From an uncultured bacterium (GTDB taxonomy: Bacteria; Patescibacteriota; Patescibacteriia; UBA1558; GWA2-36-10), in NCBI GenBank assembly GCA_903876815.1, contig CAIRBL010000087.1, forward strand, positions 1 through 47,926: a stretch of DNA of 47,926 bases, in the 5' to 3' direction. The position numbers and the translations under genes were made by a program. The notes beneath the pieces are model-generated. The model had not been told where the DNA came from and made no database searches. It was given only the letters and a program-made list of their open reading frames with translations. Below, in pieces: positions 2 to 4,067 of this stretch (the first letter of the stretch is position 1; each line of letters starts with the position of its first letter).

Positions 2-1270
2 GCTAGATCACTCACTACCTTTGGAACACTTGCTTCAGATGTAGCGACTGCTGTTTGGGCTAATGGTACAAGATCTCTAACTACCTTTGGTACTTTAGTC
101 TCAGATATTTGGTCTAACCCAACTAGAAGATTGTCAGATAAGATATTGACTAGCGGCGGCAATTTAACTACTGAGGCTTATATGGACACAGCTACCTCGA
201 CAATTATTACTAGAATAAATGCTTTGAATGATATTGCGCCTGAAGATGTTTGGAATTATATCGGTCAAGCAGTGCATGGTGGACAAATTGGTGATTGGAC
301 GGTGACTATGACAGACACGCAACAAATTTTAGCGGGCAATGAATATCGAGTGAAGATTTATACCAAAAATGCTGGCTTAGCAGAAGATGGCTTTACCGCA
401 CCTTTGATTACCATCTATGATGTTAATCGTAATGTAGTTGTCTCTAGTGTGCCAATGACAGATATTGGCGTTGGTCAATATGAGTACGTGTATTCTGTGG
501 CTGATGGCGCTGCTCAAGGTGTCTGGGAAACCATAGTAAACACAGAAGTTATAGAAGATTCCGTGGTGGTTATTAGTGATTATTGGGAAGTTAGAGGTGC
601 TCCAGCTCAGGTCATTGTCAATAGCATGAGTGATACTACTGTGCCAGTTGTCAGTGCTTATACCACTATTACCAACGAAGGTTCAGGCGGCTACGAGTAT
701 TTATATGAATGGTGCGTAGTCAGTCAGGCAAACAATCCTTGCGGTGGCGGTGACGACGTCTTTTATGCTTCAGCAGCTAAATATATTCAAGCTAGTGAAG
801 ACTGGAATACAAATTTGACGGCTGATGTGCCAAATCCAGGTAATTATTATTTTAAAGTAGTGGTCTATTTTGGTAGCGAATCTTCTGGTGCATCTCGTAG
901 CTTTACAGCTGTAGCTGAAAACGTTGGCCCATCTTGTGGTGATAATAGTTGTAACAATGGAGAGACTTGTAGCTCGTGTTCTGCTGATTGTGGTCAATGT
1001 AACAACAACGGCGGAGGTGGCGGCGGCGGAGGTGGCGGAGTGCCACCACCAGTGAACCCTCCTCCTGGTGAAGCTTGTGACAATATTCACAATAATCCTG
1101 GCGATATGAATGTGGATAGTCATGTAAATTCCGTTGACTTCTCTATTTTGCTATATTTCTGGCGCACCTTAGCACCATTTAGCAATAGCCATGTAGATAT
1201 CAATTGTGATACCAAGGTTGATTCCGTTGACTTCTCTATTTTGCTATATCATTGGGGACAAACATGGTAA
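2..1270 (+). CDS. Secreted surface protein, 5'-truncated by the window edge, with a C-terminal dockerin-like module
   Basis: Frame 2 is open from nt 2; the track start at 131 is only the first TTG. Contains 22-aa RSLTTFGTLxSD repeats, a beta-rich Ig-like middle, a Cys knot (CGDNSCNNGETCSSCSADCGQC) and a G10/Pro-rich linker. It ends in two dockerin-type Ca-loop/helix segments, DMNVDSHVNSVDFSILLYFW and DINCDTKVDSVDFSILLYHW. Confidence 0.75.
   Translation, partial: ARSLTTFGTLASDVATAVWANGTRSLTTFGTLVSDIWSNPTRRLSDKILTSGGNLTTEAYMDTATSTIITRINALNDIAPEDVWNYIGQAVHGGQIGDWTVTMTDTQQILAGNEYRVKIYTKNAGLAEDGFTAPLITIYDVNRNVVVSSVPMTDIGVGQYEYVYSVADGAAQGVWETIVNTEVIEDSVVVISDYWEVRGAPAQVIVNSMSDTTVPVVSAYTTITNEGSGGYEYLYEWCVVSQANNPCGGGDDVFYASAAKYIQASEDWNTNLTADVPNPGNYYFKVVVYFGSESSGASRSFTAVAENVGPSCGDNSCNNGETCSSCSADCGQCNNNGGGGGGGGGGVPPPVNPPPGEACDNIHNNPGDMNVDSHVNSVDFSILLYFWRTLAPFSNSHVDINCDTKVDSVDFSILLYHWGQTW
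5..136 (+). repeat. Imperfect tandem 66-nt (22-codon) coding repeat at the 5' edge of the surface protein
   Basis: agatcactcactacctttgg... at nt 5 recurs as agatctctaactacctttgg... at nt 71. Both encode RSLTTFGTL(A/V)SD, and a degenerate third unit (RRLSD) follows. Confidence 0.6.
1128..1249 (+). repeat. Exact 29-nt direct repeat encoding the two dockerin helices
   Basis: attccgttgacttctctattttgctatat occurs at 1128-1156 and again at 1221-1249 (93-nt period). Confidence 0.9.
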
Positions 1271-1284
1271 TAATATATAAATAA

Positions 1285-2175
1285 ATGTTGAATAAAAAAA
1301 TTACAATTATCTTTAGTGTATTAGCTTTATTTCTTTGCCAGATTTTAGCAAATACGACTTTGGCAGCACAAACTAGTTTTAGTCTACAGACTGAATCGGT
1401 GCGTAGAGGGGACGTGATAGTAGCAGAGCTATCTTTGCAGGAGCTAGAGCAGACCATCAATGCTATGGATGGCTACATCAGTTTTGACCCAAATTTTCTC
1501 AAAGTAGAAGACGTTAGTATTGGTAATTCAATTTTTACTTTGTGGCCAAGGACGCCAGTTTTTTCTAATGACAATGGCCGGATTATTTTTACTGGTGGCA
1601 TACCAGGCGGTTTAAAAAACACCAAAGGTAAAGTATTGAGAATTGTTTTTTTAGCCAAAAATACTGGTGAGACCTCAATCGCTGTCAGTGATGAATCTGT
1701 CTTGTATCTCAATGATGGTCAAGGCACAAAACTCAGCCCAAATAACATTGCTTTAGATTTGAGTATTGCAGAGGCAGATGAAAATGTGCCGACACAAAAT
1801 AATTGGAACGAACAATTGGTTAATGACAAAACTGGACCAGAAAATTTGATAGTTCAGCTTGGTCGCGACGCTTCTATTTTTGACGGACGTTATTTTATCA
1901 GCTTTTTTGCACAAGACAAAGAAACAGGTATAGATCATTATGAAGTCAAGGAAGGCGAAAAAGATTTTGCTTATTCAGAAAGCCCATATATATTAAATGA
2001 TCAACAATTAAAGAGTAAGGTTTTTGTCAAAGCCATCGATAAAGCTGGTAATGCAACGATAGTAGAATTTAAAACAAAAGTTAGTTTCTACGCTCAGCCT
2101 TGGTTTGCTATTTTAATCGCCATATTAGTAGTAGCGGGTATTATCTGGAAATTGAAGAAGAAAAAAATAAAATAA
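1285..2175 (+). CDS. Membrane-anchored cohesin-like domain protein
   Basis: Signal peptide (LFLCQILANTTLAA). Cohesin-like pattern RRGDVIVAELSL..MDGYISFDPNFLKVEDVSIGNSIF..NGRIIFTGGIPGG..GKVLRIVFLAKNTGETSI. Ig-like GIDHYEV..VKAIDKAGN module. C-terminal TM helix plus KLKKKKIK. Confidence 0.65.
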   Translation: MLNKKITIIFSVLALFLCQILANTTLAAQTSFSLQTESVRRGDVIVAELSLQELEQTINAMDGYISFDPNFLKVEDVSIGNSIFTLWPRTPVFSNDNGRIIFTGGIPGGLKNTKGKVLRIVFLAKNTGETSIAVSDESVLYLNDGQGTKLSPNNIALDLSIAEADENVPTQNNWNEQLVNDKTGPENLIVQLGRDASIFDGRYFISFFAQDKETGIDHYEVKEGEKDFAYSESPYILNDQQLKSKVFVKAIDKAGNATIVEFKTKVSFYAQPWFAILIAILVVAGIIWKLKKKKIK

Positions 2176-2184: not shown

Positions 2185-2224
2185 CAAAACAACCTTGTAA
2201 ATAAAAATGCAAGGTTGTTTTTTT
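2185..2224 (+). terminator. Rho-independent terminator
   Basis: 12-bp stem aaaacaaccttg / caaggttgtttt (2185-2196 / 2209-2220) followed by a T-run. Confidence 0.75.
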
Positions 2225-2309
2225 ATTTACTCAGAAATGCTATTCATTATTTTTAAAAAATGTTGTATAATAAAAACAATTAATAGGGGGAAATGCCATC
2301 ATCTTTATA

Positions 2310-4067
2310 ATGATGCAAAAACAAAAACAAATTAAAAACAGATTTTTTTTCATTTTAGCTTTTACTGCTATCCTTTTTTGTTTACCTCACATAGTTTCGG
2401 CAGCAACAATTTATTTTGCTCCAGCTTCTGGATCTTTTAAAACGGGAGACCTTATCAATGCTAGTGTTTATGTAAATACCCAGTCGCAGGCCATCAATAA
2501 CACCGAAGGCACAATTTATTTTCCAGCAGATACTTTAGAGGTAATTTCCGTTTCCAAGTCAGGATCCATTTTTTCTTTATGGGTAGAAGAGCCGTCTTTT
2601 TCCAATGGCGCCGGCTCAATTAGTTTTAATGGTGGTGTACCAACTCCTGGTTTTACTGGCGCTAGTGGTAAAGTTATTGGCATAGTTTTTAGAGCTAAAA
2701 AAGCTGGCACAGCTTCTACTTATTTTGCTTCAGCTTCTATTCGGGCCAATGATGGTTTTGGTACCAATATTTTGACAGGTACTGGCCAAGCTCAATTTGA
2801 AATCACTAGCACAACTGAGCCACCTCCTCAAGAAGAGCCTAAAGAGGAGCCAAAGGAAGAACCAAAAGAAGAACCGCAAACCAAAACCGTGAGTTCTGCT
2901 ATTAGTTCCAACACACATCCGGATCCGAATAATTGGTACAATAACTCTAGTCCAAGATTGTCTTGGAATTTACCGGCTGGCGTCACGGCTGTCAGAATTT
3001 TGTATAGTGAAAATCCAAATTCACAACCTAGTGTAGTCTATCAGCCAGCTATTAGTAGTAAAGCTTTAGATGGCGTTGGTGATGGTGTATGGTATTTTCA
3101 CTTACAACTCAAGAATGCTAATGGTTGGGGCGCAGTGACACGTTTCCGTTTCCAAATAGATACTGTCAAGCCAAATGATTTTAGCATTAGTGTAGCGGGA
3201 GAACGTGATGACAATGATCCAGTTGGACATTTTATCTTGAGTGCTAATGATGAAACATCAGGCATAGACCATTTTACTATCAAGATTGACAATGGAGAAG
3301 AACAAACATGGCAAGGTAAGAGTGGAGAGGTTTACAATACTTCAATCTTAGGAGTGGGTGAGCACACTTTATTTATCAAAGCTTTTGATAAAGCTGGAAA
3401 TTATTTAGCTGATTCAGTCAGCTTCACGGTTAAGGCTTTAGCAGCCCCAGTTTTCATAGATTATCCGCAAGATTTATTAGCAGGTGATGAGTTTATTGTG
3501 AGGGGTAAGACAAATCCAAATTCACAAGTAACTATTTGGATTGAAAAAGAAGGCGAACAAGCTATCGCCGAAACTGTTACTAGTGACGCAGATGGAAATT
3601 TTATCTTAACTTTAAAAGACGGCTTTAAGAAAGGTATTTATAATATTTGGGCCAGCGTTATTGATGGTCGTGGAGCTCAATCTGACAATTCAGCAAAACT
3701 AACTACTGTTATCAAACAATCTGATGTTTCTAAGATAGGCATGCAGGCGGTGAATTTATTGTCTATTGTGATTATCTTGGTGGCTTTAGTATTATTACTT
3801 GCTTCTTTGAGTCTCTTTGGCTGGCGCAAGGTTTTGGTCTTTAGACGTAAGATTAGAAAAGAAACTAGAGACGCTGAAGAAAAACTACATAAGATGTTTA
3901 ATGTTTTGCGAGATGATATTAGAGAGCAGATTCAAACCATGGAAAGAGCCAAGAATCGCCGAGCTCTAAGTGTGGCAGAAAAGAGAGTGCTCAAAAAACT
4001 ACAGGAGTCTTTAGACAAGACAGAGTTGGAAATGGAAAAAGAAATAAACGACATTGAAAAGATTTAA
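2310..4067 (+). CDS. Large membrane-anchored cohesin-like surface protein with Ig-like modules and a cytoplasmic coiled-coil tail
   Basis: Signal peptide. Cohesin-like pattern KTGDLINASVYV..TEGTIYFPADTLEVISVSKSGSIF..AGSISFNGGVPTPG..GKVIGIVFRAKKAGTAS. EPKEEPKEEPKEEP linker. GIDHFTIK..IKAFDKAGN Ig-like modules. TM helix (LLSIVIILVALVLLLASLSLFGW) followed by a charged helical tail. Confidence 0.65.
   Translation: MMQKQKQIKNRFFFILAFTAILFCLPHIVSAATIYFAPASGSFKTGDLINASVYVNTQSQAINNTEGTIYFPADTLEVISVSKSGSIFSLWVEEPSFSNGAGSISFNGGVPTPGFTGASGKVIGIVFRAKKAGTASTYFASASIRANDGFGTNILTGTGQAQFEITSTTEPPPQEEPKEEPKEEPKEEPQTKTVSSAISSNTHPDPNNWYNNSSPRLSWNLPAGVTAVRILYSENPNSQPSVVYQPAISSKALDGVGDGVWYFHLQLKNANGWGAVTRFRFQIDTVKPNDFSISVAGERDDNDPVGHFILSANDETSGIDHFTIKIDNGEEQTWQGKSGEVYNTSILGVGEHTLFIKAFDKAGNYLADSVSFTVKALAAPVFIDYPQDLLAGDEFIVRGKTNPNSQVTIWIEKEGEQAIAETVTSDADGNFILTLKDGFKKGIYNIWASVIDGRGAQSDNSAKLTTVIKQSDVSKIGMQAVNLLSIVIILVALVLLLASLSLFGWRKVLVFRRKIRKETRDAEEKLHKMFNVLRDDIREQIQTMERAKNRRALSVAEKRVLKKLQESLDKTELEMEKEINDIEKI

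Follow-up and report, generated by a model that had tools for sequence, protein, structure and literature searches.

Cohesin and dockerin modules, including those that work outside cellulosomes, are already known, and public annotation names these domains in some proteins from the candidate phyla radiation (CPR). Cellulosomal anchoring involves the type-I cohesins of OlpA and OlpC and the anchoring scaffoldins of Clostridium (Acetivibrio) thermocellum, as well as the adaptor scaffoldins of A. cellulolyticus. Non-cellulosomal cohesin and dockerin modules were reportedly surveyed by Peer et al. in 2009. The amylosome of Ruminococcus bromii is one such non-cellulosomal cohesin-dockerin system (PMC4611034). 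Here, we describe a locus in a 47,926-nucleotide (nt) stretch of DNA from an uncultured Patescibacteriota bacterium (GWA2-36-10), hereafter called the window, whose numbering is used throughout unless another locus is named. In its region 2-4067, three open reading frames (ORFs), all in one direction (+), encode a fiber-like protein with a C-terminal dockerin (ORF1) and two membrane-anchored cohesin proteins (ORF2 and ORF3). This trio is probably a non-cellulosomal cohesin-dockerin anchoring system, in which a variable surface fiber would dock on membrane anchors in a Ca-dependent manner.

How surface structures are built and anchored in the ultrasmall, host-dependent bacteria of the CPR is largely unknown, and experiments on host attachment have so far dealt with type IV pili, type IV secretion systems (T4SSs), unnamed adhesins, and, in 2026, Pam pili. 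The Pam pili, described from the CPR bacterium Ca. Mycosynbacter amalyticus, assemble by donor-strand exchange and comprise the pilins PamA/B/E/T, the transmembrane (TM)-anchored PapD-like chaperones PamC and PamD, and the TM-anchored terminator PamR, which is the proposed anchor; cohesins and dockerins are not mentioned in the paper that describes them (bioRxiv 10.64898/2026.03.03.709456). In Southlakia epibionticum, the dockerin-domain envelope protein SEML1_0315 was found by transposon sequencing (Tn-seq) to be essential for epibiotic growth (PMC10633639). A preprint on "giant genes" concerns the Omnitrophota. In the literature on cohesins and dockerins in CPR/Patescibacteria, we found no description of an operon made of a dockerin payload, a short anchor, and a long anchor, and none of integral-membrane anchoring with a conserved cytoplasmic tail, of an adaptor variant, or of a juxtaposition with Pam pilins.

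Results

The trio is a conserved, phylum-wide operon of the Patescibacteria. We scanned gene order with purpose-built hidden Markov models (HMMs) in the window and in 87 related loci, which are stretches of ±10 kb around matches and not whole genomes; one of them, L088, is a contig of the same strain as the window, and its ORF2 is 100% identical. The trio is also carried by complete genomes, such as CP060229.1. An ORF3-like cohesin gene directly follows the ORF2 homologue (+1) in 76 of 86 loci, and of the 82 loci with sufficient upstream DNA, 60 have a gene with a C-terminal dockerin at most 600 nt upstream of the ORF2 homologue. Most of the remaining loci belong to one clade with ORF2 homologues of ~350 amino acids (aa), where the dockerin gene stands two genes upstream and a ~250-aa secreted adaptor carrying both a cohesin and a dockerin stands two genes downstream of the ORF3 homologue. 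In the window itself, ORF1 and ORF2 are separated by 14 nt, and ORF2 and ORF3 by a 134-nt spacer. As dozens of independent Patescibacteria loci repeat this order of three genes, the trio is not a chance grouping, and this synteny, which the initial annotation had proposed to examine, strongly supports a functional link of the dockerin gene with the two cohesin genes.

All organism-level names of ORF2 and ORF3 homologues are Patescibacteria lineages or unclassified "bacterium" metagenome-assembled genomes, and the titles of 80 genome loci read Patescibacteria or CPR save for a few plain "bacterium" entries and two Gammaproteobacteria. These titles include Paceibacterota, Nealson-, Colwell-, Wolfe-, Adler-, Kaiser-, Falkow-, Nomura-, Yanofsky-, Harrison-, and Campbellbacteria, CPR3, and others. 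The relatives of ORF2 and ORF3 are mostly annotated as "hypothetical protein," with a few given as "cohesin domain-containing protein."

The extreme C terminus of ORF1 is a dockerin. The initial annotation had seen two dockerin-type segments at the end of this ORF, and these are present at a spacing of exactly 31 aa: DMNVDSHVNSVDFSILLYFW is found at aa 368 (nt 1103), DINCDTKVDSVDFSILLYHW at aa 399 (nt 1196), and their 12-residue loops occupy 1103-1138 and 1196-1231. In each of the tandem segments, DMNVDSHVNSVD and DINCDTKVDSVD, an EF-hand-like Ca loop is followed by a helix, and both have D or N at loop positions 1, 3, 5, 9, and 12, as do the dockerins of C. thermocellum. Pfam Dockerin_1 (PF00404) matches ORF1 aa 366-414 with an E value of 2.8e-6 and 27.9 bits against a gathering cutoff of 22.9, and a local dockerin HMM matches it at 2.8e-24. 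The D/N/D/D Ca-ligand positions are invariant in 31 dockerin family members, and a profile built from these 31 CPR dockerins, when searched against the PDB, found 2y3n_B (1.2e-13), 4fl4_A (6e-8), the CelS dockerin 2mte (1.2e-7), and 1daq (~1e-7), the top 16 matches all being dockerin modules or dockerin-bearing enzymes. A database search with the dockerin profile returned chiefly contig-edge fragments and confirmed the PF00404 annotation but little else. Since the two F-hand helices of the ORF1 dockerin are nearly identical (VDFSILLYFW versus VDFSILLYHW), both 180°-related binding modes are plausible. Several dockerin subtypes can be told apart, namely, "VNSVDFSILL" with 31-aa spacing, "VNLIDFSILLYWW" with 27-aa spacing, "VDFSIAAYWY" with 29-aa spacing, and the adaptor type.

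ORF2 is a short membrane-anchored cohesin protein, as the initial annotation had it, with a signal peptide, a cohesin, and a TM anchor in this order. Pfam Cohesin (PF00963) matches aa 32-151 with an E value of 3.2e-7 and 31.1 bits against a gathering cutoff of 24.1, so that ORF1 and ORF2 both exceed the curated Pfam cutoffs for the modules they were thought to carry. The AlphaFold2 model, with 76 homologues as input, has a mean predicted local distance difference test (pLDDT) score of 93.4; its signal helix is followed by a nine-strand beta-sandwich (aa 29-162), and a short helix then leads to an Ig-like domain (aa 186-262) and a TM helix (aa 272-295). When this model was compared with the PDB by Foldseek, all of the 50 best matches were cohesins, with E values down to 5e-8 and TM-scores to the target of 0.65 to 0.82, in agreement with the expected cohesin jelly roll. 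Dockerin complexes are among these matches, as are the non-cellulosomal cohesins 2vo8 and 2jh2 from C. perfringens and 2xdh from A. fulgidus (TM-score to the target, 0.75 to 0.82); identity to the characterized cohesins is 9 to 19%. Single-sequence PDB searches with ORF1, ORF2, and ORF3 gave nothing significant, and profiles and the fold search were required. We detected 361 ORF2 homologues, of about 290 to 370 aa.

ORF3 is a longer protein in which the linker EEPKEEPKEEPKEEP, the Ig-like modules (Big_13), the TM anchor (aa 480-505), and the charged helical tail of 80 aa expected from the initial annotation are all present. In its model (pLDDT, 84.7), a continuous helix crosses the membrane into ~80 cytoplasmic helical residues, and the N-terminal domain is predicted to be an all-beta domain similar to that of ORF2. 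The proposal that this domain is a cohesin holds by homology and not by a direct PF00963 match: aa 15-154 share 38% identity with ORF2 (BLASTP, 1e-21), and a cohesin HMM of the ORF2 family matches ORF3 at 2e-34. As 26 of 63 ORF3-family members individually match Pfam Cohesin and hhalign joins the two families with a probability of 100% (E = 4.5e-51), ORF3 counts as a cohesin by transitive homology. A word-indexed search gave 775 ORF3 homologues and an exhaustive search gave 2,066 clusters at 50% identity (E ≤ 1e-30), nearly all of ~575 to 600 aa and aligning end to end. Identity is 42 to 48% along the full length, including the cytoplasmic tail, for which the consensus is RKE.REAE.ALHKAFDLLKEDIREQIK.LEK.K.KR.LTEEEEKIIKQLKKDLDDAEKFV.KEIEDIEKEVK. 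In a comparison of the ORF3 profile with the PDB, the best match was an insignificant TM-plus-coiled-coil likeness to ATP synthase subunit b (E = 0.04). Both ORF2 and ORF3 have basic residues on the C-terminal side of the TM helix.

The docked partner varies, while its module does not. The smallest dockerin payload has 243 aa and the largest more than 3,331 aa, and their contents are Big_6, Big_13, fn3 (seventeen FN3 domains), or Cys-rich DUF4215 repeats. No enzymatic Pfam domain occurs in the ORF1 of the window, and no catalytic or carbohydrate-binding Pfam domain was found in ORF1 or in eight related payloads, so the statement that the payload is structural and lacks a glycoside hydrolase is true of the window protein and of these eight relatives. 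Seven of the eight relatives' payloads exceed the PF00404 cutoff, the other (L011) scoring 17.4 bits. Moreover, for 97 of 100 dockerins, no more than 6 aa separate the end of the module from the protein C terminus, each cohesin protein has a single cohesin in all 88 loci, with no multi-cohesin scaffoldin, and our dockerin HMM scan found no other dockerin, either across these loci or over the window's remaining 44 kb.

The window covers no more than the C-terminal 45% of ORF1: the ORF is open at the left end, with its N terminus beyond the window and its stop at 1270, and the visible part is 100% identical to aa 515-936 of the protein encoded at 5974-8784 of L088. The truncation arises because the source contig begins within a repeat segment of ~47 aa (ARSLTTFGTLASDVATAVWANGTRSLTTFGTLVSDIWSNPTRRLSDK) at 2-140, of which near-verbatim copies occur earlier in ORF1 (L088 6859-7000 and 7516-7660). 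Several further public contigs also end within the ORF1 gene, in which the number of repeats probably varies or is badly assembled. According to L088, full-length ORF1 starts with a Sec-type signal peptide and an N-terminal beta-sandwich, continues with ~480 aa of degenerate "W..G.R.LT.FG.L..D.W" repeats, and ends with, in order, two beta-sandwich domains, a six-Cys motif (CGD.SC..GE.C..C..DCG.C), a G10 run, a Pro-rich segment, and the dockerin. It is this six-Cys motif that the initial annotation had called a Cys-knot. Relatives of ORF1 show the same Cys-rich and poly-Gly arrangement. A run of 8 to 14 Gly residues is found in most payloads of any type (e.g., L002, L009, L018, L029, and L036), either just before the dockerin or between payload domains; poly-Gly linkers this long are unusual among bacterial surface proteins.

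Further evidence bears on whether the dockerin and the cohesins are partners. In a mirror-tree analysis of 59 loci, with partial correlations adjusted for the Ig domain in the respective protein, dockerin distances correlated with those of the ORF2 cohesin at r = 0.74 (partial r = 0.47; reverse partial, 0.17) and with those of the ORF3 cohesin at r = 0.58 (partial r = 0.33; reverse partial, 0.13). In addition, the conserved positions of both cohesin paralogues lie where strand 3 begins, within strands 5 and 6 (pattern "SIFSLW..P.FSN..G.I.F.GG.P.PG"), and in an "NDG.GT" loop after strand 8, elements that contribute to the 8-3-6-5 face on which canonical cohesins bind the dockerin. Finally, the occurrence of adaptors that carry both modules implies that cohesins and dockerins pair in these operons. 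We infer that the ORF1 dockerin binds one or both of these cohesins in a Ca-dependent manner and that the assembly may serve attachment to a host or a substrate.

The coordinates of all features are collected in Table 1.

Table 1. Features of the three-gene locus in the window and of related genes in other loci
Feature	Position	Strand	Basis or remark
ORF1, C-terminal 422 aa of a 936-aa secreted fiber-like protein	2..1270	+	Translation; match to L088
ORF1 Cys-rich motif GPSCGDNSCNNGETCSSCSADCGQC	926..1000	+	Translation
ORF1 G10 run	1010..1039	+	Translation
ORF1 VPPPVNPPP, completing the linker ahead of the dockerin	1040..1066	+	Translation
ORF1 dockerin module, two F-hand Ca-binding loops plus helices	1097..1258	+	Pfam PF00404; ends 3 aa ahead of the stop codon
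ORF2, 296 aa, short membrane-anchored cohesin protein	1285..2175	+	Pfam PF00963, AlphaFold2, Foldseek
ORF2 signal peptide	1285-1368	+	N-terminal signal-like helix
ORF2 cohesin	about 1363-1767	+	Pfam and model
ORF2 Ig-like/OmpL47-type domain	about 1798-2079	+	Model
ORF2 TM helix (aa 272-288)	2098-2148	+	Followed by basic tail KLKKKKIK
AT-rich terminator-like hairpin, 14 pairs, plus T-run	2186..2221	+	ORF2-ORF3 spacer; consensus scan alone
ORF3, 585 aa, long membrane-anchored cohesin protein	2310..4067	+	Homology to ORF2, model
ORF3 signal peptide	to about 2402	+	Model
ORF3 cohesin (aa 32-166)	about 2397-2804	+	Homology and model
ORF3 disordered charged linker EEPKEEPKEEPKEEP (aa 175-189)	2832-2876	+	Translation and model
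ORF3 three beta-sandwich/Ig-like domains including Big_13 (aa 198-469)	about 2901-3716	+	Pfam and model
ORF3 TM helix (aa 480-505)	3747-3824	+	Model
ORF3 cytoplasmic helical tail, ~80 aa, charged, conserved	3825-4064	+	Model and alignment
Strong terminator-like hairpin, 13 pairs (6 GC), plus T-run	4068..4096	+	Directly 3' of the ORF3 stop; consensus scan
Pam pilin genes just upstream of the trio	L002 1567-9277; L032 445-3705; L044 3147-7353; L056 4255-7765; L063 5999-8132
Minimal 243-aa dockerin protein	L002 9286-10017
Cohesin-plus-dockerin adaptors, ~250 aa	L004 13467-14207; L006 13454-14206; L033 13508-14254; about 17 further loci		Divergent C-terminal dockerin

The hairpin in the ORF2-ORF3 spacer is possibly a partial terminator or attenuator, and the one behind ORF3, which the trio has in common with a convergent M23 peptidase gene, is predicted to mark the operon end. 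Convergent to the trio (4104-5813, minus strand), an M23 peptidase of 202 aa, which is secreted, and a PD40/TolB-like beta-propeller protein of 357 aa are encoded, a pair that is found beside the trio in close relatives and not in distant ones. Upstream of the full ORF1 (L088 758-5912; L001 1-4963) are genes for three proteins, one of 545 aa, one of 886 aa that contains repeats and lacks a signal peptide, and one of 274 to 285 aa with a faint glucosaminidase match; TatA/TatC genes lie upstream in L001 and in one more distant relative. [quoted passage not shown] The adaptor genes of the sister clade are preceded by a gene for a conserved ~210-aa protein of unassigned function and followed by genes for ~600-aa and >2,000-aa proteins.

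A few kilobases downstream of the trio (8178-10771), five tandem T4SS-pilin paralogues (PF18895, TrbC/VirB2-like; 309, 112, ~125, ~118, and 141 aa) form an array that is kept in the sister strain contig L088 and may relate to the monoderm-type T4SS described for Patescibacteria in a preprint (bioRxiv 10.1101/2025.01.22.634366). Genes for a DUF2079 membrane protein (618 aa) and a sulfatase-family membrane protein (577 aa) with an LTA-synthase-like architecture adjoin at 11556-15142, followed on the opposite strand (15132-16709) by a 525-aa ORF with no Pfam or NCBIfam match. A glycogen/alpha-glucan cluster at 18108-24281 encodes two GT5 starch/glycogen synthases, a GH57 enzyme, an APH-family kinase that is possibly maltokinase-like, and a GalT/HIT-family transferase. 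The tRNA genes Cys-GCA, Leu-TAA, and Gly-GCC are clustered on the minus strand at 36667-37241, and Glu-TTC lies near the right end at 47069-47143. Overall, the remainder of the window is ordinary Patescibacteria chromosome, with genes for PolA, UvrB, TyrRS, PBP1, trigger factor, and H+-PPase in addition to the glycogen genes and the T4SS-pilin paralogues.

Discussion

Our results lead us to propose how the three proteins would work together. ORF1, a long, repeat-rich, non-enzymatic fiber or adhesin, would leave the cell via its Sec signal peptide and present at its extreme C terminus a Ca2+-binding dockerin on a poly-Gly/Pro tether. ORF2 and ORF3 would be type-I membrane proteins with one distal cohesin apiece, the cohesin of ORF2 being held near the membrane on a single Ig-like domain, and that of ORF3, on a flexible charged linker over a three-domain stalk, probably reaching further out. 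At the outer face of the cytoplasmic membrane, the dockerin would enter the cohesin of ORF2, that of ORF3, or both, and a lineage-variable payload would thereby be non-covalently fixed to a conserved membrane anchor. The conserved cytoplasmic helical tail of ORF3 probably makes the anchor oligomerize or connects it with a partner in the cytoplasm. In sister lineages, this pair of anchors would take small beta-sandwich proteins, giant FN3 arrays, or Cys-rich/Ig proteins.

Several observations weigh against this proposal. The ORF3 of the window has no Pfam PF00963 match even at E ≤ 1, and a Foldseek search with full-length ORF3 returned generic Ig/FN3 arrays. Two cohesin anchors stand beside a single nearby dockerin, a number that the proposal does not account for. 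The mirror-tree correlation is suggestive at most, because shared ancestry confounds such tests. Lastly, the neighborhood of the essential Southlakia gene SEML1_0315, which we checked, has no cohesins, and to our knowledge, no cohesin partner has been proposed for its product; since this gene lacks a cohesin neighbor, the dockerins of the phylum need not always act via an adjacent cohesin.

The variety of payloads, the adaptor clade, and the fact that the anchor pair ends Pam-type operons in some lineages suggest a general membrane socket for fibers and pilus bases. A bolder version, which we offer tentatively and consider doubtful as it stands, is that ORF2 and ORF3 form a phylum-wide universal socket into which each lineage would plug its own host-attachment organelle via a dockerin, be it a single fiber, a giant FN3 adhesin, an adaptor-extended assembly, or a Pam-type pilus base, with the coiled-coil tail of ORF3 relaying attachment or load to a cytoplasmic partner. 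If this were true, cohesin-dockerin docking would be core to the epibiotic lifestyle rather than to polysaccharide degradation, and the socket would account for the membrane-anchoring step that is missing for the Pam-like pili of Paceibacteria-type lineages.

The Pam pili also give rise to the alternative that survives best, namely, that the three proteins make up the membrane-proximal portion of a Pam-type (donor-strand-exchange) pilus or of some related fiber, with the dockerin protein as its terminal or base subunit and ORF2 and ORF3 as anchors or chaperone-like assembly factors analogous to PamC, PamD, and PamR. We scanned for Pam proteins with the NCBIfam models (June 2026), of which CPR_Pam_pilin_C (NF058581) has a curated cutoff of 55 bits, and with a local Pam HMM. 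In L002, a protein of 1,464 aa that carries a Pam pilin C-domain, two 354-aa pilins, a 331-aa protein, a 243-aa dockerin protein, and the ORF2-like and ORF3-like proteins are encoded in this order on one strand, and the three pilin-domain proteins score 60.7 to 84.5 bits; the arrangement in L032 is equivalent by the NCBIfam scan, and in L044, L056, and L063, the local HMM finds a Pam pilin domain directly upstream of the dockerin gene. A remote Pam-like gene of ~375 aa stands between the dockerin gene and the ORF2 homologue (-1) in ~20 more loci; of five such genes tested, three match the full-length Pam model weakly (E = 3.6e-5 to 8e-4) and two have no match. The gross architecture of ORF2, two beta domains and a C-terminal TM helix, also fits PamC and PamD when compared by description. 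Against these points, ORF1, ORF2, and ORF3 have no NF058581 or PamT match at E ≤ 0.01, in L088 the NCBIfam scan of the four genes up to 8.8 kb upstream finds no Pam pilin, and the local HMM finds none anywhere in the window, where the 14-nt gap between ORF1 and ORF2 leaves no pilin gene between them. The N-terminal domain of ORF2 matches cohesins rather than a PapD/FimC-like fold, with no chaperone among its 50 best PDB matches, and the Pam paper proposes PamR as the anchor without mention of a cohesin or dockerin (bioRxiv 10.64898/2026.03.03.709456). Because Pam pilins occur in at least five related loci and none was detected in the window or in the upstream genes of L088, the Pam link belongs to the wider family and not to the window locus, for which a pilus-base role is unlikely. 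The alternative overlaps with a cohesin-dockerin anchoring system in that the docking step is alike and the docked entity differs.

It is also conceivable, if distinctly improbable, that the cohesin-like modules of ORF2 and ORF3 do not bind the neighboring dockerin at all and are instead generic beta-sandwich spacers or binders of other ligands, such as glycans or the host surface, the dockerin being a Ca-binding stabilizer or a glycan-targeting module. In its favor, identity to characterized cohesins is only 9 to 19%, and the authors of the Southlakia study read its dockerin, whose gene has no cohesin neighbor, as possibly glycan-related (PMC10633639). Without direct interaction, however, it would be hard to explain the near-universal adjacency of a C-terminal dockerin gene and two cohesin genes over deep lineages, the module-specific covariation, and the cohesin-plus-dockerin adaptors in the same operons. 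A mini cellulosome- or amylosome-like complex that degrades polysaccharide, which the hallmark modules and the glycogen-metabolism genes at 18108-24281 might bring to mind, is effectively refuted at this locus by the lack of enzymes in ORF1 and the eight payloads and of multi-cohesin scaffoldins, by the single dockerin gene in the 48-kb window, and by the nature of the glycogen genes, which encode cytoplasmic enzymes without dockerins. A phage origin of the trio was likewise rejected, as the PHROGs database gave no matches for ORF1 and ORF2 and only an Ig-array family of "unknown function" for ORF3.

A cohesin-dockerin anchoring system of this kind suggests an anchoring principle in which a very conserved membrane cohesin pair takes dockerin-tagged, rapidly diversifying fibers. 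Our findings allow two large orphan protein families to be named and assigned predicted partners, link these families genomically to Pam pilus operons, and suggest which type of partner is plausible for other dockerin proteins, for example, the one that is essential in Southlakia. Moreover, the compact, orthogonal cohesin-dockerin pairs, which come in several subtypes, are potentially usable for protein display.

Comparison with described systems places the trio between several of them. The Southlakia protein SEML1_0315 is likewise a large secreted Patescibacteria protein with a dockerin domain, and it is Ig-rich; it differs in belonging to the Saccharibacteria and in having genes for a hydrolase, a tRNA, and a response regulator as neighbors. 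The Pam system shares with the trio that both are CPR-specific, concern surface filaments with Sec-exported components, and use beta-sandwich proteins with a C-terminal TM helix as the membrane tether, whereas Pam pili assemble by donor-strand exchange and the trio of the window is without Pam domains.

Cellulosomal anchoring is similar in that a single C-terminal dockerin with a duplicated F-hand sits on a surface cohesin, as is predicted here, and the ORF2 model superposes on Coh-OlpC (4dh2) and Coh-OlpA (3ul4); the cohesin-plus-dockerin adaptor of the sister clade recalls hierarchical cellulosomes. In contrast to those systems, the payload here is structural and not enzymatic, there is a single cohesin per protein in place of tandem arrays, an integral TM helix takes the place of SLH domains or sortase, the ORF3 anchor has a conserved cytoplasmic tail, and the partner genes share a single operon with a stoichiometry of roughly 1:2. 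The non-cellulosomal pairs, such as the glycosidase/toxin complexes of C. perfringens (2vo8, 2jh2, and 2ozn) and the A. fulgidus module 2xdh, resemble the trio in serving outside cellulose degradation. While those modules assemble enzymes or have no known partner, the locus described here joins a fiber and two membrane anchors in one conserved operon of a reduced-genome, probably host-dependent phylum.

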